Source: Escherichia coli
Lineage (GTDB): Bacteria > Pseudomonadota > Gammaproteobacteria > Enterobacterales > Enterobacteriaceae
Strand: one strand, 5' to 3'
Assembly: GCF_050920415.1 (NCBI RefSeq)
Contig: NZ_CP169309.1
Length of the DNA stretch: 64,000 nt
Part shown: positions 48,583 through 64,000 of the stretch, piece after piece
Numbering within the stretch: the first letter of the stretch is position 1
How the letters are laid out: every line of letters begins with the position of its first letter
The notes under the pieces: model-generated
The model's database searches: none
What the model was told of the DNA's origin: nothing
What the model saw: the letters and a program-made list of their open reading frames with translations, nothing else
Position numbers and translations under genes: made by a program

Positions 48583-49035
48583 AACCAATCAAATATGTTA
48601 ATTATGTATAAACCATAGACCATTGGTAATTTTATTGTTAATTTATTGTGAAATATTTATGTAACACAATTATTACAATAAAAAGACATAGATAAAAAAC
48701 CAGTGTTTTATTTAACAGAATCGCCTTATCAACTTTTTATAATACCAATTGATTAGAGTAGCCAATTTGTTGCTATTTTACATAACATATTTTTATCAAA
48801 GTTAATTGATTGTTGCCTTTATGAGCATCGCCGTAAGACCGCCATGTTATTGTTTCATTTGTAATAATCACCAATAAGTATCGATGAGAGAGATATCGCT
48901 TAACAGAGGCGACTGTGTCTGCATGAACACAGGCAACTTTCGCCTGATAAACGAAAAATGAGCGATTTTTGCAAGTTAGTTTTTCTATAGCTGGGTACGC
49001 TGAGCGCCTCGCTTGATTACAATGAGGTTGCTGCC

Positions 49036-49980
49036 ATGGGTCTTGATAATATAGGTTCTGTTGTCAATCGCTTCTCTGGTTGGCCATCAAATGATCCTCT
49101 AAAAACAGATAACGAATCAATGACATCACCCGTGACTGTGCAGGTAATAAAGTTGATTGCCGCCATCCTTGACCCACATCGGATAGTCGTTGGTATCGAT
49201 ACACTCTATACAACGCAGCGCAAAACATTTACCTCAGAGGGTCAACAACTCATTGAATCAGCATTGAAAACACTTAATGTGATGAATTTAAATAACCTGG
49301 AAACAGATCGCGATGAGGAGGGTAACTATCTGGCTTTTGGATATAACGTTGACACTCCTGACAGAATAACCGTTTCTGCTTATAATGAAAAAAAACCTTT
49401 CTGTTATGGCCAATGTCTTTTAATACAGGATGAAGAACCAGATTTATTTAACCTGGTAAAAATTAAAACCTTTGAAGCCAGGCATAATTATGTTTCTAAA
49501 TTGATGAGCGATCCGGAATTTATGTTTAAATTCAGTTATAGCGCCCAACAAAATAGATTAGAACCTCATCTTCTGGTTCCCACTTATTTCCCTCTGAAAA
49601 CAAACCAACCGGTTACGCTAGAGGATTTACTGATACTTTATCGTTTCTTTAAAATGAATGGCGATTTTAATATATTAACATCAGATGAATACATGAGTAT
49701 CATGACACCTCTGATGAAGTGTGAGCGTAGTGTCCACGACCATAACAGGTATGTGACGGGCAAAGATGCTCTTCTTCTGGACAATCCTCCGTCTGGTAAC
49801 CAGATATATTTCCATATTTCCCCTGACGAATCAGCAACACTTGTCCTTTATTTTTCAGACAATAACCTTGAATCCTTCGTCTTTGAAAATGATATTCCGA
49901 GCCAGTATCGACATTTCAAAATGTTTACCAATTTAGCACTAGTTATTGATCAGTTAACCGACGCCAATCAAATACTTTAA
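49036..49980 (+). CDS. Hypothetical protein, AT-rich (314 aa)
   Basis: Long ORF with AT-rich codon usage unlike the flanking backbone; no family recognised. Confidence 0.5.
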   Translation: MGLDNIGSVVNRFSGWPSNDPLKTDNESMTSPVTVQVIKLIAAILDPHRIVVGIDTLYTTQRKTFTSEGQQLIESALKTLNVMNLNNLETDRDEEGNYLAFGYNVDTPDRITVSAYNEKKPFCYGQCLLIQDEEPDLFNLVKIKTFEARHNYVSKLMSDPEFMFKFSYSAQQNRLEPHLLVPTYFPLKTNQPVTLEDLLILYRFFKMNGDFNILTSDEYMSIMTPLMKCERSVHDHNRYVTGKDALLLDNPPSGNQIYFHISPDESATLVLYFSDNNLESFVFENDIPSQYRHFKMFTNLALVIDQLTDANQIL

Positions 49981-50059
49981 TTTTCTATACAGCCCTGTGT
50001 AAAATATTGCTAAACAGTGCCCGGGGTTGATTTTTATTCCTCACGGTGATATTTAAATC

Positions 50060-50482
50060 ATGACACCATCTCAGCTCTCTTTTAATACTCTTCCTGTCAA
50101 TGCAACATGCACTTCAGAGATAACAGTAAACACACAAAAATTCTCTGACATCCTCTACTCAGTGGGGTATTCCCTAAAGGATCTGGCTTATCTGAGCAGA
50201 TGTCTGGCATCATTACACCCAACACTCGCCAAAAACATTTATGAAACGGAAAATCTCAGCGATCAAAAATTACTTTATATAGATTGCCGTAGTACAAATG
50301 AAATCAAGATAAATATATTTTTGGGTCAAAAAAGAGAAGAATTAATCGAAATTAGTTCTGATACAGTCATTTTTTCGATACTGTCTTCATTGATTGACTC
50401 AGCTATTTCTGAACATCGACATCAAATCACCGTTAATGATTCAAATAATTCTGAACTATTTTATGAGGATTATACTGATTAA
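50060..50482 (+). CDS. Hypothetical acidic protein, AT-rich (140 aa)
   Basis: ORF co-oriented with and 80 nt downstream of 49036-49980. Confidence 0.45.
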   Translation: MTPSQLSFNTLPVNATCTSEITVNTQKFSDILYSVGYSLKDLAYLSRCLASLHPTLAKNIYETENLSDQKLLYIDCRSTNEIKINIFLGQKREELIEISSDTVIFSILSSLIDSAISEHRHQITVNDSNNSELFYEDYTD

Positions 50483-51024
50483 ATCCACTCTGTGCGAACC
50501 TGTCCTGCATTTATGCCAGAAGTATTAGAATCTTTGCTTAACGTTACTCATACAGTAGCACCTTCATGTGTCTCTCTTTTTTACGAACAATCAAAAGAAC
50601 TAACAAGGGGCATAATTCGTATAAATTATTAACCATTTGTTATATTCAACATTTTTTTACATTAAGCAGAGATGAATTGCAGTGAAATTCAAGTTAAATT
50701 TTACGAAATGTATTACTCATGGCTAAAAAATCTTCCCAAAATGCAAATTAGAAGTTGATCACAATTATCTCAATCCATCAAATCAAGATAATTTTAAAAA
50801 TTTAACATCAATGACAGCGGTTGGCATAACACACTGAATTAAAATGAAAATTTAAAAAACAATTTTTAAACAATCATTTCCCGAAAGACATTTTGAAAAT
50901 AGATCAATTGCAACATTACGGTCAGATAAAGACACTCCTCTGATATTAAACCTGTGCCGTTATGAACGGCCATAAATACGACGTGTGTAACTTAATTTAC
51001 TCTCTGTCTTACAAAGGATTACCC

Positions 51025-51474
51025 ATGAAGAAAGCAACACTTGTGATTGGCGTTATTGGCGCGGACTGCCATGCAGTAGGCAATAAAGTTCTGGACCGCG
51101 TTTTTAGCAACCATGACTTCAGAGTCATTAATCTGGGCGTAATGGTCAGCCAGGACGAATATATTGATGCTGCCATTGAAACTGGCGCTGACGCGATTGT
51201 CGTCTCCTCTATCTATGGGCATGGCGATATCGACTGTCTGGGCATGCGCGAACGCTGCATTGAGCGTGGCTTGGGGGACATCCTGCTCTATGTGGGCGGC
51301 AACCTGGTGGTCGGAAAACATGACTTCGCTGACGTGGAAACCAAGTTCAAAGAGATGGGATTTGATCGCGTCTTCGCCCCAAGTCATGACTTAGAAGATG
51401 TCTGCCAGCTGATGGCCCACGATATCAACCAACGTCATGGCGTTGAAACTTGCATTCTTGAAGAGGCAATCTGA
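51025..51474 (+). CDS. glmS: Glutamate mutase sigma subunit, B12-binding (methylaspartate mutase S; 149 aa from MKKATL)
   Basis: Close match to clostridial MutS/GlmS ([18 protein letters not shown]..., GDIDC...); symbol is not the glucosamine-6-P synthase. Confidence 0.85.
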
Positions 51475-52862
51475 TGCAAATCGTCTCTGTCGATATTGGA
51501 TCGACGTGGACCAAAGCAGCCCTCTTCACCCGGGAGGGGGACGCGTTAACGTTGGTTAACCACGTTCTGACCCCAACCACCATCCATCATCTGGCAGAGG
51601 GATTTTTCTCCAGCCTTAACCAGGTGTTAAACGTAGATAATGCCCTCCCCCTGTTAAACCGCGGTGAGGTTGCATTGAAGTATTCCTCTTCTGCCAAAGG
51701 TGGGCTGGCGGTTGCCGCAATGGGAATAGTGCCTTCTATCACTCTGGAAACCGCGAAAGTAACCGCTCACTCTGCAGGTGCTAAAATTGCGCAATATTAC
51801 TCCTACAAGCTGAACCGCCGTGATATCCAGGCACTAGAAGAAACGCAGCCCGATATTCTCTTGTTCACCGGCGGCACCGACGGCGGAGAAGAAAGCTACG
51901 GACTGAATAACGCCCGTGTGCTGGCAGAATCCAAACTCGACTGCGCCATTATTTATGCCGGAAACCGGGATATTCAGGACAAGGTGCAGGAGACCCTCGG
52001 GCATAAAGACCTGACCATCGTCGACAACGTTCTGCCCGATCTTGACCATCCGAACCCTTTAGCTGCACGCCAGGCTATCTGCGACATATTCCTTAAACGC
52101 ATCGTTAAAGGGAAAGGGCTGGATGTCATTGTTGATAAAACAGGCGAAGAACCAATGCCGACACCATGGACGGTCTTTGAACTGGTGAAGGCAATCAGTA
52201 ACGTCGATCACAGCTGGAAAGAGTTCATGCTGATCGACATGGGCGGCGCAACCACCGATGTCTATTCCGCCTGTGCCAACACGCTCTCGCCCGACACTGT
52301 TTTACATGGCGTACCGGAACCCTTCGTAAAACGGACGGTGGAAGGCGATCTGGGAATGCGCGTCTCGGCAATGGTGGTTGGTGAAAGTGCGAAAGAGTTA
52401 GTCAGTGTGAATTTTGCTCAGCAACCCGCACAGTTGGACGCTTTTTATCATTACCTCCGTCATCTAGTCGCTCATCCCGACTACTTACCCGCGAATGCAG
52501 ATGAAAAATATTTCGATACCGTCCTGGCCGGACTGTGTGTGGGTTATGCCACCGAAAGACATGCGGGCACCAAAAAAGAGGTCTGCACCTGCGTCGGCAA
52601 TGTCGATTTACAGATGGGACGTGACCTGACAACCGTGCGTAAAGTCGTGGGTTCCGGCGGATGGCTCTCGCGTGCCAGTCAGTTCGATATGCATCACTGG
52701 TTGAAATACCGCGAGTTAAACGACGACGGTAAACGCATTCTCTTACCGACCGAATTTGAATATTACCGCGATTCCCGGGGGCTATTACCACTGCTGGCAA
52801 ACGTCGCCAGAGTCGATCCGCTGGCCGCCGCGCGCACCAGTATTCAATGCTTAACCCTATAA
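51474..52862 (+). CDS. glmL: Glutamate mutase-associated MutL/GlmL-like protein (462 aa)
   Basis: Conserved position between the S and E subunits; start overlaps the glmS stop. Confidence 0.65.
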   Translation: MQIVSVDIGSTWTKAALFTREGDALTLVNHVLTPTTIHHLAEGFFSSLNQVLNVDNALPLLNRGEVALKYSSSAKGGLAVAAMGIVPSITLETAKVTAHSAGAKIAQYYSYKLNRRDIQALEETQPDILLFTGGTDGGEESYGLNNARVLAESKLDCAIIYAGNRDIQDKVQETLGHKDLTIVDNVLPDLDHPNPLAARQAICDIFLKRIVKGKGLDVIVDKTGEEPMPTPWTVFELVKAISNVDHSWKEFMLIDMGGATTDVYSACANTLSPDTVLHGVPEPFVKRTVEGDLGMRVSAMVVGESAKELVSVNFAQQPAQLDAFYHYLRHLVAHPDYLPANADEKYFDTVLAGLCVGYATERHAGTKKEVCTCVGNVDLQMGRDLTTVRKVVGSGGWLSRASQFDMHHWLKYRELNDDGKRILLPTEFEYYRDSRGLLPLLANVARVDPLAAARTSIQCLTL

Positions 52863-52880
52863 CAATTAAGGCTGCAATCA

Positions 52881-54326
52881 ATGGAACTTCGAAATAAGAA
52901 ATTAACCCATGACGAATTCATGACCGAGCGGCAACAGGTATTGAAAACCTGGGAAACCGGCAAGGATGTTGAAAACTTTGAAGATGGCGTTAAATACCAA
53001 CAAACCATTCCTGAGCATAAACGCTTCTCTCTTGCCCTGCTGAAAGCAGACAAGGAAGGTAAAACCCTTAGCCAACCGCGCGCAGGCGTGGCGCTGATGG
53101 ACGAACACATCGAACTACTGAAAACACTACAAGAAGAGTGCGATCTGCTGCCGAGCACTATCGATGCATATACCCGTCTGAATCGGTACGAAGAAGCGGC
53201 TGTAGGGATTAAAAAATCCATCGAAGCCGGAACCTCTAAACTGAACGGTTTACCGGTAGTTAACCACGGCGTCGCAGCTTGCCGTCGCCTCACCGAAACT
53301 CTGCAAAAACCGCTACAGATCCGCCACGGCACGCCTGATGCGCGTCTGCTGGCTGAAATCTCGATGGCCAGCGGCTTTACCAGTTATGAAGGCGGCGGCA
53401 TTTCCTACAATATTCCGTATGCCAAGCGCGTAACGCTGGAAAAATCGATCCGCGACTGGCAGTACTGCGATCGTTTAATGGGGATGTATGAAGAACACGG
53501 GATCCGCATCAACCGCGAACCGTTTGGCCCACTAACGGGTACGCTAATCCCGCCGTTTATCTCGCACTCTATCGCAATAATCGAAGGCTTGCTGGCACTG
53601 GAACAGGGTGTGAAGTCTATCACCGTTGGTTATGGTCAGGTCGGTAGCCTGACGCAGGATGTTGCGGCGATCCAGTCTCTGCGGGAACTTGCACACGAAT
53701 ATTTTCAGAGCTATGGCTATACCGACTACGAATTAAGTACCGTGTTTCACCAGTGGATGGGAGGCTTTCCGGAGGACGAATCGAAAGCGTTCGCCATTAT
53801 CTCCTGGGGTGCTGCCGTCGCGGGGATGTCTGGTGCTACCAAAGTCATCACCAAAAGTCCGCACGAAGCCTGGGGCATCCCGACTGCTGCTGCCAACATT
53901 CAGGGGCTAAAAGCCTCCCGCCAGATGCTCAACATGGTCAACGAGCAGAAATTCCCGCCGTGCCCGGCGGTTGAACTAGAAATTGAACTGATTAAGAGCG
54001 AGGTTCGCGCTGTACTGAACAAAGTGTTCGAACTGGGCAATGGTGATATTGCGCGCGGTACGGTGCTGGCATTTGAAGCGGGCGTACTGGATGTGCCGTT
54101 TGCGCCAGCCGCCTGCAACGCAGGCAAAATTCTTCCGGTCCGTGACAACACCGGCGCGATACGCGTACTGGAAGCCGGAGCCGTTCCATTGCCAAAAGAT
54201 ATTCTCGACCTCCACCACGATTACGTTGCTGAACGCGCGCGCTTTGAAGGACGCCAACCGACATTCCAGATGGTTGTAGATGACATCAATGCTGTATCCC
54301 ACAGTAAATTAATAGGAAGACCATAA
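52881..54326 (+). CDS. glmE: Glutamate mutase epsilon (catalytic) subunit (481 aa)
   Basis: Size and sequence fit MutE/GlmE. Confidence 0.8.
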   Translation: MELRNKKLTHDEFMTERQQVLKTWETGKDVENFEDGVKYQQTIPEHKRFSLALLKADKEGKTLSQPRAGVALMDEHIELLKTLQEECDLLPSTIDAYTRLNRYEEAAVGIKKSIEAGTSKLNGLPVVNHGVAACRRLTETLQKPLQIRHGTPDARLLAEISMASGFTSYEGGGISYNIPYAKRVTLEKSIRDWQYCDRLMGMYEEHGIRINREPFGPLTGTLIPPFISHSIAIIEGLLALEQGVKSITVGYGQVGSLTQDVAAIQSLRELAHEYFQSYGYTDYELSTVFHQWMGGFPEDESKAFAIISWGAAVAGMSGATKVITKSPHEAWGIPTAAANIQGLKASRQMLNMVNEQKFPPCPAVELEIELIKSEVRAVLNKVFELGNGDIARGTVLAFEAGVLDVPFAPAACNAGKILPVRDNTGAIRVLEAGAVPLPKDILDLHHDYVAERARFEGRQPTFQMVVDDINAVSHSKLIGRP

Positions 54327-55567
54327 TGAAAATAAAACAGGCCCTTTTTACCGCTGGCTACTCCTCATTCTATTTCGATGATCAGCAGGCGATAAAAAAC
54401 GGAGCGGGTCACGACGGCTTTTTTTATACCGGAGAGCCGGTAACACAGGGGTTTAACGCCGTACGTCAGGCCGGGGAGTGCGTTTCGGTTCAGTTGATTC
54501 TGGAAAACGGTGCGGTCGCCGTAGGCGACTGTGCTGCCGTACAGTATTCCGGGGCAGGCGGTCGCGATCCACTGTTCCTCGCAGAGCACTTTATTCCGTT
54601 CCTCAACGACCATATCAAGCCATTACTGGTAGGCCGCGATGTGGATGCTTTCCTGCCGAATGCCCGTTTCTTCGACAAATTGCGTATTGACGGAAACTTG
54701 CTGCATACCGCCGTACGTTATGGATTATCACAGGCGCTGCTTGATGCTACCGCGCTGGCAACCGGCCGTCTAAAAACTGAAGTGGTCTGTGATGAATGGC
54801 AGTTGCCACGCGTGGCGGAATCCATTCCATTATTTGGTCAGAGCGGAGACGATCGATATATCGCTGTCGATAAGATGATCCTTAAGGGCATCGACGTGCT
54901 ACCTCATGCGCTGATTAATAACGTCGAAGAGAAACTGGGCTTTAAAGGAGAAAAACTGCGCGAATATGTCCGTTGGCTATCCGATCGGATTCTAAGCAAA
55001 CGCACCAGCGCACGCTACCACCCTACCCTACACATCGATGTATACGGCACTATTGGTCTGATCTTCGATATGGATCCGCTTCGCTGTGCGCAATACATCG
55101 CCAGTCTGGAAAAAGAGGCGCAAGGCCTGCCGCTCTACATTGAGGGGCCGGTCGATGCCGGTAACAAGCCCGATCAAATCCGCCTGCTGACCGCGATTAC
55201 CAAAGAGCTGACGCGCCTCGGTTCCGGCGTGAAAATTGTGGCCGATGAATGGTGTAACACCTACCAGGATATTGTTGATTTCACTGATGCCGCCAGTTGC
55301 CACATGGTGCAAATCAAAACCCCGGATCTGGGCAGTATTCACAACATCGTCGATGCAGTTCTTTATTGCAACAGCCACAGCATGGAAGCGTACCAGGGCG
55401 GCACCTGCAATGAAACCGATGTCAGCGCCCGCACGTGTGTCCACGTCGCCCTTGCCGCTCGCCCCATGCGTATGCTGGTAAAACCGGGGATGGGCTTTGA
55501 CGAAGGCCTCGATATCGTCTTCAACGAAATGAATCGTACTATCGCGCTGTTGCAGGCTAAGGATTAA
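54326..55567 (+). CDS. mal: 3-methylaspartate ammonia-lyase (413 aa)
   Basis: Enolase-superfamily methylaspartase, N-terminus similar to clostridial MAL (MKIK...YFDDQ.AIK.GA). Confidence 0.85.
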   Translation: MKIKQALFTAGYSSFYFDDQQAIKNGAGHDGFFYTGEPVTQGFNAVRQAGECVSVQLILENGAVAVGDCAAVQYSGAGGRDPLFLAEHFIPFLNDHIKPLLVGRDVDAFLPNARFFDKLRIDGNLLHTAVRYGLSQALLDATALATGRLKTEVVCDEWQLPRVAESIPLFGQSGDDRYIAVDKMILKGIDVLPHALINNVEEKLGFKGEKLREYVRWLSDRILSKRTSARYHPTLHIDVYGTIGLIFDMDPLRCAQYIASLEKEAQGLPLYIEGPVDAGNKPDQIRLLTAITKELTRLGSGVKIVADEWCNTYQDIVDFTDAASCHMVQIKTPDLGSIHNIVDAVLYCNSHSMEAYQGGTCNETDVSARTCVHVALAARPMRMLVKPGMGFDEGLDIVFNEMNRTIALLQAKD

Positions 55568-55570
55568 CAA

Positions 55571-56941
55571 ATGGCTCGTTCTTTTAAAGTCTTATCGCCA
55601 ACGGCAATCCTCGGGTATGGATTCCCGGAAGAGAGCTTCCGCAAAGCGATGGCAGAATCGCCCGATCTGATCGCCGTTGATGCAGGATCTTCCGATCCAG
55701 GTCCCCACTACCTCGGGGCAGGCAAACCGTTTACCGATCGCGCAGGGGTCAAGCGCGATCTGCGCTATATGATCACCGCAGGCGTGCAAAATAATATACC
55801 GGTGGTGATCGGAACGGCCGGCGGTTCTGGTGCCGCTCCACACCTGGAGTGGTGCCGAGAAATAATTCATGAGATTGCCCGGGAAGAGCGCCTCGCGTTC
55901 TCGATGGCGCTGATCCCGGCAGACGTTGACAAAGCCATCGTCCACCAGGCGCTGGATAACGGCAAAATCACGGCGCTGGATTTTGTCCCGCCGTTAACCC
56001 ACGACTCGATTGACGAAAGTACGTATATCGTCGCGCAAATGGGCATCGAACCCTTCCAGCGGGCGCTGAAAGAAGGAGCGCAAGTGGTGCTGGGCGGGCG
56101 CGCTTACGACCCGGCCTGCTTTGCTGCGCTTCCGATCATGCAAGGCTTTGATGAAGGTCTGGCACTGCATTGTGGGAAAATCCTTGAATGTGCGGCAATC
56201 GCTGCAACACCCGGCTCAGGCTCTGACTGTGCGATGGGCATCATTGATGACAACGGCTTTACGCTGAAGACGTTTAATCCGAAGCGTAAATTTACCGAAA
56301 CGTCAGCTGCTGCACACACACTGTATGAGAAATCCGATCCCTACTTTCTGCCAGGACCTGGCGGCGTGCTAAACCTGAAAGGTTGCACATTTAAAGCGAT
56401 CAATGATGGCGAAGTGTACGTCAGCGGTTCTAAGCATGAAGAAACGCCCTATGCCCTGAAACTGGAAGGTGCGCGGCGGGTGGGTTTCCGCTGTTTGACC
56501 ATCGCCGGAACGCGCGACCCGATCATGATCGCCGGGATCGATAACATCATCGATGAAGTCAAAACCAGCGTTTCGCGTAATCTGTCCTTAGACGATGACA
56601 GCATTCGCATCAATTTCCACCTGTACGGCAAAAACGGGGTGATGGGTGACCATGAACCGATGCAAACTGCCGGGCATGAGCTGGGGATTGTCCTTGATGT
56701 AGTTGCACCGACCCAGGAAATTGCCAACAGCGTTTGCTCGCTGGTGCGCTCTACCATGCTGCACTACGGCTATGAAAACCGCATCGCTACCGCAGGCAAC
56801 CTGGCGTTCCCGTTCTCCCCTTCTGATATCCAGGGCGGGCCGGTATACGAATTTTCCATATATCACCTGATTGAAGCCAACGACGCTCTGCGTTTTGATT
56901 TCCATATTGAACAGGTGACGCCAGAAGGAGTTCAGGCATGA
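55571..56941 (+). CDS. Conserved hypothetical protein, DUF1446 (AtuA N-terminal-like) family (456 aa)
   Basis: Family assignment from memory of the AtuA-like fold; no catalytic motif identified. Confidence 0.5.
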   Translation: MARSFKVLSPTAILGYGFPEESFRKAMAESPDLIAVDAGSSDPGPHYLGAGKPFTDRAGVKRDLRYMITAGVQNNIPVVIGTAGGSGAAPHLEWCREIIHEIAREERLAFSMALIPADVDKAIVHQALDNGKITALDFVPPLTHDSIDESTYIVAQMGIEPFQRALKEGAQVVLGGRAYDPACFAALPIMQGFDEGLALHCGKILECAAIAATPGSGSDCAMGIIDDNGFTLKTFNPKRKFTETSAAAHTLYEKSDPYFLPGPGGVLNLKGCTFKAINDGEVYVSGSKHEETPYALKLEGARRVGFRCLTIAGTRDPIMIAGIDNIIDEVKTSVSRNLSLDDDSIRINFHLYGKNGVMGDHEPMQTAGHELGIVLDVVAPTQEIANSVCSLVRSTMLHYGYENRIATAGNLAFPFSPSDIQGGPVYEFSIYHLIEANDALRFDFHIEQVTPEGVQA

Positions 56942-57255
56942 AACAGTCAATTGTCTCACTGGCGCAAGTCATTCGTTCGAAAAATGCCGGACCTTACGAA
57001 CTGGTTTTAGATATTTTATTTAAAACGAAAGAAAACTATGAGCGAGTAAAATCATCAGGGCAATTAACCCCAGAACTGATTGCGCGCTTATATCATGTTG
57101 AACCTGACTTTATTCATCGTATTGTCTGGTTTGATCCTTCTAACGCAGTAAAAATTGTCATGCCACGAGATATTATCTCCGGGAATGTAGGTGACAATGA
57201 TGTCTATGGCGCACAGCAACATGCACCTTTATTAAATATGAGTTTCGATTTGTAA
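56938..57255 (+). CDS. Small partner protein, DUF4387-like (105 aa), translationally coupled to the preceding gene
   Basis: ATGA stop/start overlap with 55571-56941. Confidence 0.45.
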   Translation: MKQSIVSLAQVIRSKNAGPYELVLDILFKTKENYERVKSSGQLTPELIARLYHVEPDFIHRIVWFDPSNAVKIVMPRDIISGNVGDNDVYGAQQHAPLLNMSFDL

Positions 57256-57415
57256 AAATCCGAACACTTTTAGCCAACTGACATCCCGTCACTTATTGCA
57301 GCTCAACACTTCAGCTATTTGTAAGGTTGTTATAGCAGGTAGATGCCTGAATCTCTATTCAGGCATCCACTTCTCCTGATTCTGATTTATCGCCGTGCAC
57401 CTGATGGAGGAAAAA

Positions 57416-58696
57416 ATGAAGAAAATAAGTTTAACTACGATGATTCTTTTGGCGCTGGTACTTGGAATGATTATCGGCGTAGTGCTCAATAACACTGCTT
57501 CACCGGAAACAGCAAAACTCTATGCGCAAGAAATATCGATATTCACGACGATTTTCTTACGACTGATAAAAATGATTATCGCTCCGTTAGTGGTCTCTAC
57601 CCTGGTGGTAGGTATTGCTAAAATGGGCGATGCCAAAGCCCTTGGTCGTATTTTTTCTAAAACACTCTTTTTATTTATTTGCGCCTCATTGCTGTCAATT
57701 GCCTTAGGCTTGATAACGGTAAATTTCTTCATGCCAGGCACAGGAATTAATTTTGTTGCACACGGTGCCGAAACCACCGGAGTGGTCGCGTCAGAACCCT
57801 TTACACTAAAAGTATTTATTTCGCATGCTTTCCCCACCAGCATTGTCGATGCCATGGCGCACAATGAAATTTTGCAAATCGTGGTGTTCTCAATTTTCCT
57901 CGGCTGTAGCCTGACGGCGATTGGTGAGAAAGGCAGCGCCATCGTTCACGCCTTAGATTCGCTGGCACATGCCATGTTAAAGCTCACTGGCTACGTCATG
58001 CTCTTCGCTCCCCTGACCGTATTCGCCGCTATTTCAGCATTGATTGCTGAACGAGGACTGGCAGTTATGGTGAGCGCCGGGATCTTTATGGGTGAATTTT
58101 ATTTCACCATGTTATTACTTTGGGTGCTGCTTATCGGTCTGGCCATCGTTTATGTCGGCCCCTGCATCAGACGCCTGACCCGCGCCCTTTCAGAACCCGC
58201 CCTGCTGGCATTTACCACATCCAGTTCTGAAGCTGCTTTTCCGGGAACGCTTGAAAAACTGGAGCAATTTGGCGTTTCCCCCAAAATTGCCAGCTTTGTC
58301 TTACCCATTGGCTACTCATTTAATCTCGTTGGATCAATGGCCTACTGCTCCTTCGCCACAGTTTTCATCGCCCAGGCCTGCAATATCCATTTATCCATCG
58401 GTGAGCAAATCACCATGCTGTTGATCCTGATGTTGACCTCGAAAGGAATGGCTGGCGTACCACGCGCCTCAATGGTGGTTATCGCCGCCACGCTCAACCA
58501 GTTCAATATTCCGGAAGCGGGGCTGATCTTGCTGATGGGCGTTGATCCGTTCCTTGATATGGGGCGTTCCGCGACAAACGTCATGAGCAACGCAATGGGC
58601 GCTGCGATGGTGAGTCGGTGGGAAGGCGAACATTTCGGCGAGGGTTGTCGGGGTAAAGCATTAAAACCCAATGAATCGAACGTTGCTCTGCCCTGA
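57416..58696 (+). CDS. Dicarboxylate/amino acid:cation symporter (GltP/DctA-like; 426 aa from MKKISL)
   Basis: DAACS-family TM topology and conserved motifs; GGAGGA RBS before ATG 57416. Confidence 0.8.
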   Translation: MKKISLTTMILLALVLGMIIGVVLNNTASPETAKLYAQEISIFTTIFLRLIKMIIAPLVVSTLVVGIAKMGDAKALGRIFSKTLFLFICASLLSIALGLITVNFFMPGTGINFVAHGAETTGVVASEPFTLKVFISHAFPTSIVDAMAHNEILQIVVFSIFLGCSLTAIGEKGSAIVHALDSLAHAMLKLTGYVMLFAPLTVFAAISALIAERGLAVMVSAGIFMGEFYFTMLLLWVLLIGLAIVYVGPCIRRLTRALSEPALLAFTTSSSEAAFPGTLEKLEQFGVSPKIASFVLPIGYSFNLVGSMAYCSFATVFIAQACNIHLSIGEQITMLLILMLTSKGMAGVPRASMVVIAATLNQFNIPEAGLILLMGVDPFLDMGRSATNVMSNAMGAAMVSRWEGEHFGEGCRGKALKPNESNVALP

Positions 58697-58803
58697 GGGG
58701 GATCTTAAGCAATCAGAAGCCAATGACTACGCATTTTTATAAGCCGGATCATGAAGTTAGACGGCAATTAAGTAACACTAACGTTTAAGGTGAAAAGTGA
58801 AAT

Positions 58804-60456
58804 ATGTCCAAACCATTTATCTGGCAAGAACCGTTTCTACAAAATAAAGACGGTACAGAATATACATTAATTAGCGATCAACATATTACAGTAACGGAAT
58901 TAGACGGCGAAGAAGTGATAAAAATCGCTCCTGAAGCATTAACGCTGCTTGCCCGGCAGGCATTTTATGAAGCCTCTTTTTTCTTACGTTCCGCTCATTT
59001 GCAACAGGTCGCCAGCATTCTTAGCGATCCGCAGGCCAGTAGTAATGATAAATACGTTGCGTTGCAGTTATTACGTAATGCTGAAGTCTCAGCAAAAGGG
59101 GTATTACCCAACTGTCAGGATACCGGCACCGCAACTATTGTTGCCAGTAAAGGGCAACAGATATGGACGGGAGGTAACGACGCTGAAGCCTTAAGCAAAG
59201 GCATTTACAGTACTTTCCAGGAAAATAATCTGCGCTTTTCACAAAATGCGCCGCTGGATATGTATACCGAAGTCAATACGCAAACCAATCTCCCGGCGCA
59301 GATTGATATCAGCGCTGTCGCTGGTAATGAGTACCATTTTCTCTGTGTTAATAAAGGGGGCGGCTCCGCCAATAAAGCCGCGCTTTATCAGGAAACCAAA
59401 TCCTTATTGCAACCAGAAAAACTGACCGCGTTTTTAATCGACAAAATGAAATCGTTGGGCACGGCCGCCTGCCCGCCCTACCACATCGCCTTTGTCATCG
59501 GAGGGCTTTCAGCCGATCAAACCTTAAAAGTTGCCAAGCTGGCCTCTACGAAATATTACGACAATTTGCCCACCAGCGGAAACGAGCAGGGACAAGCATT
59601 CCGTGATATTGAGCTGGAAAAAGCGTTGCTCGAAGCCAGTCAGCAATTTGGTATTGGTGCGCAATTTGGGGGTAAATATTTCGCTCATGATATTCGCGTC
59701 ATTCGTCTGCCGCGTCACGGTGGCTCTTGCCCGATAGCTATGGCGCTCTCCTGTTCTGCCGATCGCAATATCAAAGCAAAAATTAACAAGCACGGTATCT
59801 GGCTGGAAAAACTCGAACACAATCCGGGGCAATATATTCCAGCCTCATTGCGGGAAGAAAATCACGCGCAACATGTACACCTGGATCTAAACCGTCCGTT
59901 GCGTGACGTGATGCAGGATCTCGCCAGATTACCGGTAGGTACCCGCGTGTCGTTAAGTGGTCCCATCGTAGTGGCGCGCGATATCGCCCACGCAAAAATA
60001 AAAGCGCGGCTGGATAGCGGCGAATCGATGCCGGATTACCTGAAGCATCATATTGTCTATTACGCTGGCCCGGCGAAAACACCGGAGAACATGGCCTGCG
60101 GTTCACTGGGTCCAACCACGGGCGGTCGAATGGACGGTTATGTCGAAACCTTCCAGGCGGCTGGCGGCAGTCTGGTAATGTTATCGAAAGGTAACCGCAG
60201 CCAGCAGGTCACCGATGCCTGTCACAAACATGGCGGCTTCAATCTGGGAAGTATTGGCGGTGCAGCTGCGTTACTGGCGCAAGAATATGTCAAAAGTCTG
60301 CGTTGCCTGGAATACCCGGAGCTGGGTATGGAGGCGGTGTGGATGATGGAAGTGGAAAATCTGCCCGCATTCATCCTGGTCGATGATAAAGGCAATAATT
60401 TCTTTAGTCAGTTTGAGCAGCAACACCGCTGCGCCAGTTGCCCTGCGGGACATTAA
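58804..60456 (+). CDS. fumD: Class I (Fe-S) fumarate hydratase paralogue, mesaconase/fumarase FumD (550 aa)
   Basis: FumA/FumB-family length and motifs; clustered with glutamate mutase and methylaspartase. Confidence 0.8.
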
Positions 60457-60465
60457 GGAAAATGA

Positions 60466-61068
60466 ATGGAAGCGCGAATTTCAACTGAACGGCATGTGCA
60501 GCGCCAGCAGAAATTGAAGGAACAGGTCGATACGCGCGTCGCGGCGGCGATAGAGAAAAAAGGGATCTTGATTGTTTTCACCGGCAACGGCAAAGGGAAA
60601 TCCACTGCCGCGTTTGGTACTGTGACGCGCGCGGTGGGTCATGGCAAAACGGTGGGGGTTGCACAGTACATCAAGGGGCAATGGGACAACGGCGAATACA
60701 ACCTTCTCCAGCCGCTGGGGGTTGAGTTTCATATTATGGGAACCGGTTTTACCTGGGAGACTCAGAACCGGCAAGCGGATATCGATGCGGCGAAAGAGGT
60801 CTGGTCGGAAAGCAAACGGATGCTGGCTGACAAGCGTTACGACTTAGTGGTGCTTGATGAGCTCACCTATATGCTGGCTTACCATTATCTGGATACAGAA
60901 GAAGTGATCACTTCTCTGCAAAACCGTCCGGCACAACAAAGTGTCATTGTCACCGGACGCGGTTGCCACAGTCAGATATTAAAAATGGCGGATACGGTAA
61001 GTGAAATCCGCCCCGTCAAACATGCTTTTGATAACGGCATTCAGGCCCAGCCGGGGATCGACTGGTAA
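60466..61068 (+). CDS. Cob(I)alamin adenosyltransferase, BtuR/CobA family (200 aa)
   Basis: Strong similarity to E. coli BtuR (IIVFTGNGKGKSTAAFG...VVLDELTYM...TGRGC...VKHAFD.G..AQ.GID). Confidence 0.85.
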   Translation: MEARISTERHVQRQQKLKEQVDTRVAAAIEKKGILIVFTGNGKGKSTAAFGTVTRAVGHGKTVGVAQYIKGQWDNGEYNLLQPLGVEFHIMGTGFTWETQNRQADIDAAKEVWSESKRMLADKRYDLVVLDELTYMLAYHYLDTEEVITSLQNRPAQQSVIVTGRGCHSQILKMADTVSEIRPVKHAFDNGIQAQPGIDW

Positions 61069-61101
61069 TAACTGCGCCTGGCATCCCGCCAGGCGCAGGT
61101 T

Positions 61102-62007
61102 TTACATCTCCTGCGGTACGACCGATTTCGCCAGCAACCATTCACGAAATTGCTGCAAGTGCGGAGAGTCAGACTTCTCTTCCTGCCACGTCATAATAAA
61201 ACGATTACCGGTACGAATAGGCACATCACAGGGGATCACCATATCGCCACTATCCAAATCATGTTGAATAGCGAACCGTGGTAACAGCGCCACGCCGAGA
61301 TTAGAGCGCACGGCGGCAATCAGCATTGAAAGCAAATCGAAACGTGGTCCGTTATTGACCAGCGGACTGCTAACGCCAGATAAAGCAAACCACTCTTCCC
61401 AGCCAGTAATACGGGTGCTTTGATGCAGAAGTGGTAACTCAGTAAGCAGTTCTGCCACTGACAGTTTTTGATCGGACATTGCAAGCAAACTGCCGCTGCA
61501 TACCGGCAAAATCTCCTCTTCAAAGAGATATTCTACTTCCGCCCAGGGCGCGCAAAAATTTTCGCGCATAATGACAGCATCGTACTCCCGATTAAGAAAA
61601 TCGCCGTTATTAGCTAAAGAATGAATATTAACAATAATATCGGGATGTAACTTTGTGAATTCATGTAAATTTGGGATTAACCAGTGGGTACTAAACGTAG
61701 GATTAACGGCAAGTTCAATAACCTGAACCGTAGGCTGCCAGGTCATAATCGTATTGGTATCGCGTTCCAGCTTATTTAATGTTTCTTTTACTATCCCCAG
61801 GTAATACTTCCCTGCATCATTAAGAAAAATGCGTTTTTTAGAGTGTGAAAATAACGGAGTATGTAAAAATTCCTCCAGCGCACTTACTTGTCTGAATACA
61901 GCACTTTGGGTTAACGCTAACTCCTCAGCCGCTCTGGTATAACTTTCATGTCGTGCGACGACCTCAAAAGTCACCAGCAGCTCCGTTTTAGGTATTTTTC
62001 CTCGCAT
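61102..62007 (-). CDS. LysR-family transcriptional regulator (about 301 aa from MRGKIPKT)
   Basis: N-terminal LysR HTH (ELALTQSAVFRQVSALEEFL); divergent from the downstream rtcB-like gene. Confidence 0.8.
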   Translation of the reverse strand: MRGKIPKTELLVTFEVVARHESYTRAAEELALTQSAVFRQVSALEEFLHTPLFSHSKKRIFLNDAGKYYLGIVKETLNKLERDTNTIMTWQPTVQVIELAVNPTFSTHWLIPNLHEFTKLHPDIIVNIHSLANNGDFLNREYDAVIMRENFCAPWAEVEYLFEEEILPVCSGSLLAMSDQKLSVAELLTELPLLHQSTRITGWEEWFALSGVSSPLVNNGPRFDLLSMLIAAVRSNLGVALLPRFAIQHDLDSGDMVIPCDVPIRTGNRFIMTWQEEKSDSPHLQQFREWLLAKSVVPQEM

Positions 62008-62221
62008 AATGCCGTCCGTGAAAAAATAACAACTCAAAAATTATTTTATAAAAAACAGTAGCACTAATGAATATCATAATTCAAATAAACAAACCAGTCA
62101 GCTATATGTCTAACCAGGAAAATAAAGTGACAATAATCCTAAAACAGGAATTTCACCTCAGTTATCCGCATGCAATACTTTAAAGCTATTATTGCAAGAA
62201 TATTATTCATATACATGAATA

Positions 62222-62345
62222 TACTCTAAATAAGTCAAGTTGCAGGAAGGGAACAAATAATGAATTTCCAGAAGCTTACATAAGTAAGTGACCTGGGTGA
62301 GCGAACATCGATGCAGCACATGCAACTTGAATTATGACAAGTATA
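62222..62345. repeat. ERIC/IRU intergenic repeat (second copy)
   Basis: Near-identical to 16341-16465 incl. AAGTAAGTGACCTGGGTGAGCG. Confidence 0.8.
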
Positions 62346-62596
62346 CAATGATAAATTTATATACCCTATGTTATATATTATCTATGTCCGGTTAAATTGA
62401 ATGAGTCATAGCCTTAAAAGACTTCACAAAAGATAATTCCTCTTTAACAATAAGCCAGATTTACCACTTGTAAAACTTGCTATCGCCACATACACTACGC
62501 GCGTTTTCTTTCCCTTTTGCTGGCTGCTGACCGGAAAGACAAAATTACCCTCGCAATACAGGGGGTTGTTTAACGTCTATATTTCAGGACAGCGTT

Positions 62597-63994
62597 ATGC
62601 ATCATCTTTTAAGGCTTGATAAAGCCTTTCTGCGCAAAGGGATCCAACTTTCCCGTGCCAACAATATTGTTTCATTATGTCGTCCATCAGGAGCCAGTGC
62701 CCGCGTACTGCTGCCGGACGAACTGCCGCTGGAAGAAAAAGCAGTGACACAACTGCTTGATTTTGCAGAAGTGAAGATACCAGGCCATCCAGGTTACGTA
62801 CGCCAGACGTGCGCGACGCCAGATTTTCATCCCGGCAATGGCGTCCCCGTTGGCGCGGTGGTGGCCTCAACGCCGGATTTAGTCATTCCCGCCGCCATCG
62901 GCACCGATATTTCTTGTGGCATGCGGCTGCTGACGACCGGATTAACACTTGAGCAAGCCGAAGCGCATAAAGACGTCATCGCTCAGCGGTTAACGCAAGT
63001 GCTACTGCAAAATGAGCGCGATGTTCCGTTATCCGCACAGGCGTTCACCGCGCTTTTTGATGGCGGACCGGCAGATTGCGTGTCGACCTTGCCATCAGCA
63101 GGTCTCTGGACACGCACGAATATCCCCCGAATGGTACAAGAGATTGACCGCTGCATTGGGCTTAACGAGCATAACAGTCATTCGCGTTATGCCCCACCCG
63201 CCCTGCTGGCAACGGACCGCGCATTACTCCGCGATCCTTGTCTGGGTACGCCGGGTTCAGGTAATCATTTTATTGAACTTCAGGTCGTTGATAGCGTGGT
63301 TGATCGCCATGTAGCCTGGCAACAAGGGCTGAAAACAGGCGATATTGTGGTGATGATCCACAGTGGATCGCGAGATGTTGGCTTTTACGTCGGAAGACGC
63401 TGGATGGATCGCGCCCGTGCTGAATGGCCCACCGGACATAAACATCCACAAAGCGGGTTATATGGTCTGGCAGGCGGACTGGCGGAGGAATATCTACAAG
63501 CGATAGGAATGGCGGCGCGTTACGCGTGGTTAAATCGCGTGACAATTGCCGAAATGGTGCGCGTATGTCTTGCCAATCTCTTTCATCAGGACAATTCGCA
63601 TCTGGTGGTGGATGTGCCACATAACATCATCCTTCGCGAGCATGAAATGAATATTCATCGCAAAGGCGCAACACCGGCACGAGTGGGCAATCTGGCGTTA
63701 ATCCCTGGTTCAATGGGCGATTATTCGTGGCTTGCGGTAGGTTGCGGCAACCCGGAGTGGCTGTGGTCATGCAGTCACGGAGCAGGACGCAGCCAGCGTC
63801 GGCAGGCCATGCGCTCACGCGCGACTGAAGAGTCAACGCTGCCGTGGCAATGCGTCACATTGCGCGAAGAACGACGTCTTGAAGAAGCGCCAGCGGCTTA
63901 TAAAGATATTGGTCCGGTTATCGAAGCTCAACAAGAAGCCGGATTAATTCAGCCAGCGGTCAGATTTCGACCGTGGTTAACGTTTAAAGCATAA
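62597..63994 (+). CDS. RtcB-family RNA ligase paralogue (465 aa)
   Basis: RtcB motifs GSGNHF, HSGSRDVG, SCSHGAGR. Confidence 0.75.
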   Translation: MHHLLRLDKAFLRKGIQLSRANNIVSLCRPSGASARVLLPDELPLEEKAVTQLLDFAEVKIPGHPGYVRQTCATPDFHPGNGVPVGAVVASTPDLVIPAAIGTDISCGMRLLTTGLTLEQAEAHKDVIAQRLTQVLLQNERDVPLSAQAFTALFDGGPADCVSTLPSAGLWTRTNIPRMVQEIDRCIGLNEHNSHSRYAPPALLATDRALLRDPCLGTPGSGNHFIELQVVDSVVDRHVAWQQGLKTGDIVVMIHSGSRDVGFYVGRRWMDRARAEWPTGHKHPQSGLYGLAGGLAEEYLQAIGMAARYAWLNRVTIAEMVRVCLANLFHQDNSHLVVDVPHNIILREHEMNIHRKGATPARVGNLALIPGSMGDYSWLAVGCGNPEWLWSCSHGAGRSQRRQAMRSRATEESTLPWQCVTLREERRLEEAPAAYKDIGPVIEAQQEAGLIQPAVRFRPWLTFKA

Positions 63995-64000
63995 AAAAGG

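Follow-up and report, generated by a model that had tools for sequence, protein, structure and literature searches.

The 64,000-nucleotide (nt) stretch of Escherichia coli MFDS1022581 DNA analyzed here as a whole (the window) ends at position 64000, 6 nt past the stop codon (63994) of a gene for a 465-amino-acid (aa) protein of the RtcB family of RNA ligases. RefSeq lists its product as 'RtcB family protein'; we refer to it as RtcB3-type, a working name given here. The original prediction, made from this DNA alone, had reported an open reading frame (ORF) of this length with RtcB active-site motifs, a divergent LysR gene, and a window end 6 nt beyond the stop codon, all of which proved accurate. 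The elements in the immediate surroundings of the gene are as follows:

62597–63994, plus strand: rtcB3-type gene, predicted to encode a 465-aa stand-alone RtcB-family 3'-phosphate/5'-OH RNA ligase (ATG ORF, full-length Pfam RtcB match, motifs, AlphaFold2 (AF2) model).
62489–62596, plus strand: 108-bp leader that accompanies rtcB in every E. coli context; homology to loci of the hut type discussed below (L003, L009, L010) begins exactly at 62489.
61102–62007, minus strand: LysR-type regulator, GcvA-like (ORF 61102–62037; RefSeq start at 62007, 301 aa).

An AGGA ribosome-binding site (62586–62589) lies 7 nt ahead of the rtcB3-type ATG. The 3-kb region matches NZ_CP169399.1 of E. coli MFDS1022581 at 100% identity and lies in an accessory segment between the core genes cydA and sucD that differs among strains, and in this respect the variable location claimed for it was borne out.

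We show that the 465-aa protein has an RtcB fold with all catalytic residues in place, including the Asp/Cys/His metal site and the histidine of the HGAGR motif. Pfam RtcB (PF01139) matches residues 63–464 against model positions 7–425/426 (E = 1.5e-94), a full-length family match, and the ORF carries the motifs MIHSGSRDVG and WSCSHGAGR. The predicted metal ligands are D104 and C107 (in TDISCG), H224 (in GSGNHF), H255 (in IHSGSR), and H342 (in PHN), and the predicted GMP-accepting residue is H394 (in SHGAGR). Every catalytic motif aligns with P. horikoshii and T. thermophilus RtcB, and residues D104, C107, N223, H224, H255, H342, and H394 are invariant across an alignment of 21 clade members whose mean column identity is 73%. 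The AF2 model (predicted local distance difference test, pLDDT, 87.6; predicted template modeling score, pTM, 0.90) was matched by Foldseek over its whole length to P. horikoshii RtcB with GMP and Mn (4dwq_A; E = 1.6e-32, template modeling score (TM) 0.81) and to human RTCB (8odp_A; TM 0.84).

By sequence, this protein is a third E. coli RtcB paralogue, distinct both from the ligase of rtcBA and from PrfH-linked RtcB2, an assignment that follows from low pairwise identities, NCBIfam scores below cut-off, and a separate clade in phylogeny. The protein is 30% identical to RtcB1 (K-12 rtcB, of rtcBA) and 28% identical to RtcB2 (from an ST131 strain with an intact rtcB2-prfH pair), about as far as RtcB1 and RtcB2 are from each other (28%), and its 465 aa compare with 408 aa in RtcB1 and 379 aa in RtcB2. 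All NCBIfam RtcB models score below cut-off for it, the best matches being the PrfH-associated models TIGR03073 (release_rtcB; 168.9 bits vs a cut-off of 271.8) and NF007153 (206.5 vs 407 bits). A neighbor-joining tree was built from 117 sequences: 104 RtcB representatives 380–530 aa long, E. coli RtcB1 and RtcB2, and the window protein with 10 further members of its clade. In this tree, it falls in a tight proteobacterial clade of ~465-aa proteins nested among relatives of ~460–480 aa at 40–46% identity; RtcB1 is placed with proteins of ~400 aa, and RtcB2 forms a branch of its own. The search among representatives recovered members of the protein's own clade as fragments only, so the top full-length matches there, at 40–46% identity, belong to sister clades. 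A paralogue that is distinct from, and larger than, the rtcBA-linked enzyme had been predicted, and both points hold, with the proviso that 'large' applies only in comparison with the two other E. coli enzymes, the length of the protein being that of archaeal and eukaryal RtcB. The literature found, up to 2026, names just two E. coli RtcB ligases, RtcB (rtcBA) and the PrfH-linked RtcB2, and the window gene is a third, an uncharacterized member of a well-known enzyme family rather than a new system.

Comparison with known RtcB systems helps to place the gene. With E. coli RtcB1 (the rtcBA-rtcR system) the protein shares the Pfam family and the metal-binding and His-GMP motifs, and presumably also the Mn2+/GTP-dependent three-step ligation of 3'-phosphate and 5'-OH ends. 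It differs from RtcB1 by an extra N-terminus of ~40 residues and a longer helical segment at ~118–205, and its gene lacks the rtcA, the divergent rtcR, and the sigma-54 promoter of that system; moreover, it is accessory (5% of genomes) and, in other genera, shares its locus with an RtcB1 orthologue. RtcB2, the ligase of the RtcB2-PrfH module, is likewise an accessory E. coli paralogue with an intact catalytic core (PMC9304027, PMC9223846, PMC13166195), and by analogy the window protein could plausibly be dedicated to one class of damaged RNA. The two differ, beyond the figures given above, in the absence of an overlapping prfH here and in chromosomal position, on the sucD side rather than between yafP and pepD. 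The long archaeal and eukaryal enzymes (P. horikoshii PH1602 and human RTCB) are similar in length, superpose over the full length as described, and align in sequence end to end over residues 40–460 at 22–27% identity, whereas the window gene lacks their tRNA-splicing context. Finally, several RtcB paralogues in one bacterium, RtcB1 to RtcB3 of M. xanthus, with a different balance of ligation and capping, are said to have been described by Maughan and Shuman in 2015. These set a precedent for such paralogue multiplicity.

The ~465-aa proteins form a compact clade of beta- and gamma-proteobacteria. Among the 120 best homologues listed, nearly all are 462–471 aa long (a few are 398–514 aa), those outside Escherichia are 58–67% identical to the window protein, and the hosts include Pseudomonas aeruginosa, Burkholderia, Ralstonia, Variovorax, Chitinimonas, and others. 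A scan with one genome per species found the gene in 288 species, including Burkholderiales, Neisseriales, Gilliamella, Xenorhabdus, Pectobacterium, and Enterobacillus, and identity across orders within the clade is 55–67%. In E. coli, the body of the gene is present in 296 of 5426 complete genomes (~5%), always as a single chromosomal copy, and 289 of these 296 copies are near full length. Ratios of nonsynonymous to synonymous substitution rates (dN/dS) are 0.18, 0.17, and 0.15 against alleles 3.8–7% divergent at the nucleotide level. These comparisons show a gene that is intact and under purifying selection. Phages yielded only distant RtcBs (at most 31% identity), and plasmids no genuine copy, the single 98% 'plasmid' match being a 4.9-Mb record.

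In most loci of the clade, including those of P. aeruginosa and Burkholderia and three sister-clade examples, rtcB3 is a lone gene. All-against-all clustering of the ORFs of 82 loci revealed no family beyond lineage-level synteny, the largest being found in 15 of the 82; a LysR-like cluster present in 15 loci consists of a different LysR, 22–32% identical to that of the window, and is probably unremarkable, given how common such regulators are in Burkholderiales. RNA-repair genes do occur next to the gene in some taxa. In seven loci from three genera (Janthinobacterium, one Gilliamella, and Affinibrenneria), it is flanked by a PF09414 ATP-dependent RNA ligase and an HD/AAA_33 protein, a cassette reminiscent of an RNA repair pair that first heals and then seals the broken ends; NCBIfam holds no model for this ligase, and the HD protein gives only weak matches to CCA-enzyme HD models. 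KptA lies downstream in Chitinivorax. Among the clade loci, a genuine RtcR (774 bits, cut-off 650) adjoins the rtcB3-type gene only in Gilliamella and Enterobacillus, and in a Comamonadaceae metagenome-assembled genome (MAG) both RtcB paralogues stand in tandem. The loci concerned are:

L048 2595–7398; L047; L050; L064; L065; L011 6001–13251; L018 818–3714: RtcB1 and the 465-aa RtcB in one locus (Gilliamella, Enterobacillus, Comamonadaceae MAG); no rtcA homologue was detected in them by tblastn.
L012–L014, L016, and L063 (about 3520–5700); L030 3621–5627; L086 7829–9994: cassette of PF09414 ligase and HD/AAA_33 (kinase-like) protein.

The position of RtcR in Gilliamella made control of the gene by RtcR and sigma-54 attractive at first. 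However, the divergent partner of RtcR in Gilliamella and Enterobacillus is a canonical RtcB1 orthologue (68–71% identical to E. coli RtcB1), with the 465-aa gene on the other side (in Gilliamella, rtcB1 <- rtcR -> rtcB3). Moreover, no site resembling TGGCAC-N5-TTGCA was found within 350 bp upstream of the window gene or of 84 clade genes, while the same scan recovered a perfect promoter at the K-12 rtcBA control, TGGCACGACGGTTGCA. We therefore rejected this form of control. Several Gilliamella loci also contain a 262-aa ORF on the opposite strand between rtcR and the 465-aa rtcB (L064 4993–5781, minus strand). A separate observation concerns the 10-mer TCAGGACAGC, which lies just upstream of the window rtcB start (62584–62595), overlapping the ribosome-binding site, and recurs in K-12 (L089), just past the sigma-54 promoter of rtcBA; by a rough estimate such sharing has a ~1% chance in two 100-nt stretches, and it may be a coincidence. 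Scans of the window region for promoters and terminators gave counts not above those in shuffled sequence, Rfam had no match on 60900–64000 at E <= 1 and none on four related loci at the gathering threshold, and PADLOC assigned no defense-system family to RtcB or LysR at E <= 0.01.

Taken together, we consider it likely that the window gene encodes an intact, selectively maintained RtcB of a third type, acting as a stand-alone Mn/GTP-dependent ligase that repairs RNA with 3'-phosphate and 5'-OH ends, and that the neighboring LysR is unrelated to it. The reaction path follows what is established for RtcB enzymes in general (reviews: PMC10630183; PMC8051266). In a first step, His394 would be guanylylated with GTP in a Mn2+-dependent manner; GMP would then be passed to the RNA 3'-phosphate, after hydrolysis of any 2',3'-cyclic phosphate, and attack by the 5'-OH end would reseal the strand. 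The enzyme would need no obligatory protein partner, and it could serve to mend RNA broken under stress or by a ribonuclease toxin, on a substrate other than those that RtcB1 and RtcB2 use. On ribosomes cut by colicin E3, the latter two cannot replace each other (PMC9304027; PMC13166195), and in several taxa a single locus holds both this paralogue and RtcB1; for these reasons, a distinct RNA substrate is most likely why the paralogue has been retained.

Several observations weigh against the ligase proposal. RNA-repair neighbors accompany the gene in only some of the loci, roughly 17 out of 84. The gene is often lost, 394 E. coli genomes keeping only a 50-bp scar of it, and so it is dispensable. 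A convincing rtcB promoter was not found upstream of the window gene, as sigma-70-like matches were no commoner than in shuffled sequence. What we propose for the substrate and physiological role of the clade is pure inference. Lastly, by analogy with M. xanthus RtcB3, 'ligase' may not be the word for the main activity of the protein, because some RtcB paralogues reportedly favor end-capping over ligation.

This last point can be taken further, to an enzyme that mainly caps nucleic-acid ends or acts on DNA (3'-ppG or 5'-phosphate capping) instead of sealing RNA. The balance of ligation and capping reportedly differs among the M. xanthus paralogues, and RtcB3 of that species is said to favor end-capping over ligation. 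The conserved N-terminal 40 residues that are specific to the clade, as well as its own version of the helical segment at ~118–205, would be compatible with such a departure. However, all residues of the ligation steps are conserved in the window protein, and the neighbors noted in other taxa are RNA-repair genes, with no DNA-repair context among them. We thus regard a capping or DNA-acting enzyme as unlikely, although it is the alternative that fares best.

Slightly less likely still is a functionless hitch-hiker that was brought into E. coli with a hut island and is now decaying. In about 150 genomes, an 8.6-kb hut cluster (HAL, hutG, hutI, hutD, permease, hutU) lies between a LysR gene 97% identical to that of the window and the same rtcB. 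An 87%-identical RtcB relative from an unknown host is also head-to-head with hutU, with a different downstream gene, and since this relative too adjoins hutU, the comparison suggests that rtcB arrived together with the hut block. Loss is frequent, and a truncated form of 398 aa is common. The remnants of the gene include:

63951–64000, plus strand: the last 44 nt of rtcB plus 6 nt, retained as a scar adjoining sucD in 394 gene-less genomes (690 genomes matching some part of the gene, minus the 296 with the gene body).
L004 4495–5050 (E. coli WP3-W18-ESBL-08): decayed locus that keeps parts of the spacer between LysR and HAL, 61 nt from HAL itself, and two stretches of rtcB, 57 nt of its interior and its last 50 nt.

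The latter locus is a decayed derivative of the hut form and documents a stepwise deletion of hut and rtcB. Against a gene without function stand the low dN/dS values across alleles up to 7% divergent, the near-full length of almost all the copies that remain, and the conservation of the clade across orders, all of which argue that, where it is kept, rtcB3 has been maintained by selection.

The arrangement in the window could also be read as a pairing of the divergent LysR with rtcB. If so, LysR would be a dedicated regulator and the two genes would form a LysR-controlled RNA-repair unit. The head-to-head order is indeed found in 144 E. coli genomes, and in strains with the hut-rtcB block this LysR stands at its edge. 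Escherichia sp. MOD1-EC7003 has, on the strand opposite to rtcB and ~1 kb upstream of it, an ORF that shares 92% identity with the N-terminal half of this LysR. However, the start codons of the two window genes are 589 bp apart, and what lies between is variable:

62026–62488: AT-rich spacer (31% GC), present in full only in the 144 genomes with the window arrangement; elsewhere its place is taken by the hut cluster or by decayed hut remnants.
62211–62345: unannotated copy, within this spacer, of a ~135-bp dispersed intergenic repeat containing AAGTAAGTGACCTGGGTGAGCG.

The hut-type loci are homologous to the window up to 62025 and again from 62489 onward. All but one of the 5426 E. coli genomes (5425) carry the repeat, with 2–11 matching sites each at ~84% identity. 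As it contains AAGTAAGTGACCTGGGTGAGCG, a sequence known from the ERIC2 primer, it is most likely an ERIC/IRU element. The 62025/62489 junction itself is a recombination hot spot, and a hut insertion is also present in a 'Citrobacter sp.' MAG (loci L003 1–10512; L009; L097).

The LysR gene is far more widespread than rtcB, being found in 1127 E. coli genomes vs 296, and at least 823 genomes have it without rtcB; in O157:H7 the order is fumD-cobO-LysR-sucD with no rtcB, and L004 likewise has LysR alone. No orthologue of the window LysR was found near rtcB in other genera, where the best candidate is 32% identical. The LysR gene is listed, as the LysR-type transcriptional regulator (LTTR), in the enterobacterial glutamate-fermentation cluster together with GltP, FumD, and CobA (Kronen and Berg, PMC4682846). 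The LysR protein, which RefSeq lists as 'LysR substrate-binding domain-containing protein' at 61102–62007, belongs to the GcvA-type LysR subfamily (1.3e-65), and the RefSeq gene order is cydA, two hypotheticals, glmS, glmL, glmE, methylaspartate ammonia-lyase, AtuA-family, DUF4387, dicarboxylate/amino-acid symporter, class I fumarate hydratase, cobO, LysR (minus strand), RtcB (plus strand), sucD (minus strand). Because of the difference in genome counts, the intervening hut cluster, the published listing, and the lack of a LysR orthologue near rtcB elsewhere, we conclude that LysR is the terminal gene of the glutamate-fermentation cluster rather than a dedicated partner of rtcB, and that the head-to-head arrangement is circumstantial. 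LysR would regulate the adjacent glutamate-fermentation genes, and it would have become a neighbor of rtcB only through the absence here of the hut cluster that separates them elsewhere. A LysR-controlled repair unit is thus improbable, a shade more so than the hitch-hiker.

With regard to the rest of the window, the methylaspartate (mesaconate) glutamate-fermentation cluster at ~49000–61070 is complete, and includes the AtuA-family/DUF1446 gene, a GltP-like symporter, the class I fumarase FumD (NF011921, 1274 bits), and cobO. Two genes without annotated function (~49036–49980 and 50060–50482) precede it. At the other end, next to uvrB, positions 1–4179 encode a 550-aa hypothetical protein and a large pentapeptide-repeat protein whose gene is truncated where the window begins; neither is known from the K-12 map.

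The remaining alternative, that the window gene is an RtcB2-like ligase acting with a downstream PrfH to rescue or repair ribosomes cut by ribotoxins, is by far the least probable in spite of the RtcB2-PrfH modules that exist in E. coli and the PrfH-associated models that are its two best NCBIfam matches, since both matches fall well short of their cut-offs, identity to RtcB2 is 28%, the gene past the window end in the RefSeq annotation is a convergent sucD, 97 bp after the RtcB stop codon and followed by sucC, odhB, sucA, and sdh, neither prfH nor rtcA has a homologue in 84 clade loci (tblastn, E <= 1e-6), and the true RtcB2-PrfH module occupies a separate E. coli site, between yafP and pepD in the ST131 strain. 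The proposed PrfH partner was accordingly rejected, and physical linkage to PrfH is refuted. No RtcA homologue was found in the neighborhood of the window gene, and in E. coli the rtcB3-type gene is monocistronic, wedged against sucD. The original prediction had named the absence of a downstream partner together with clustering among canonical RtcBs as the outcome that would speak against it; the first was found, while the protein does not cluster with canonical RtcB. In practice, the rtcB3-type gene should not be annotated or read as a PrfH-module gene or as a LysR-regulated gene.

The enzymes known so far act on different lesions: RtcB1 on tRNA halves and rRNA cut by MazF, and RtcB2-PrfH on the colicin E3 cut. 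It is tempting to speculate, as a tentative possibility that we hold less probable than its contrary, that the third, partner-less RtcB lineage, which E. coli shares with about 290 other proteobacterial species, has evolved to seal one particular RNA lesion out of reach of both RtcB1 and RtcB2-PrfH. Candidate sources of such a lesion include a particular anticodon nuclease, a contact-dependent inhibition toxin, or a colicin, and if this were true, rtcB3 would be a strain-specific, immunity-like determinant against a ribotoxin. Given that RtcB2 proved specific for one ribotoxin lesion, this conserved and uncharacterized lineage, carried by ~5% of E. coli as well as by Burkholderia, Pseudomonas aeruginosa, Pectobacterium, Xenorhabdus, and bee-gut Gilliamella, offers a concrete lead, cheap to follow, to a further RNA-repair activity with a dedicated target.

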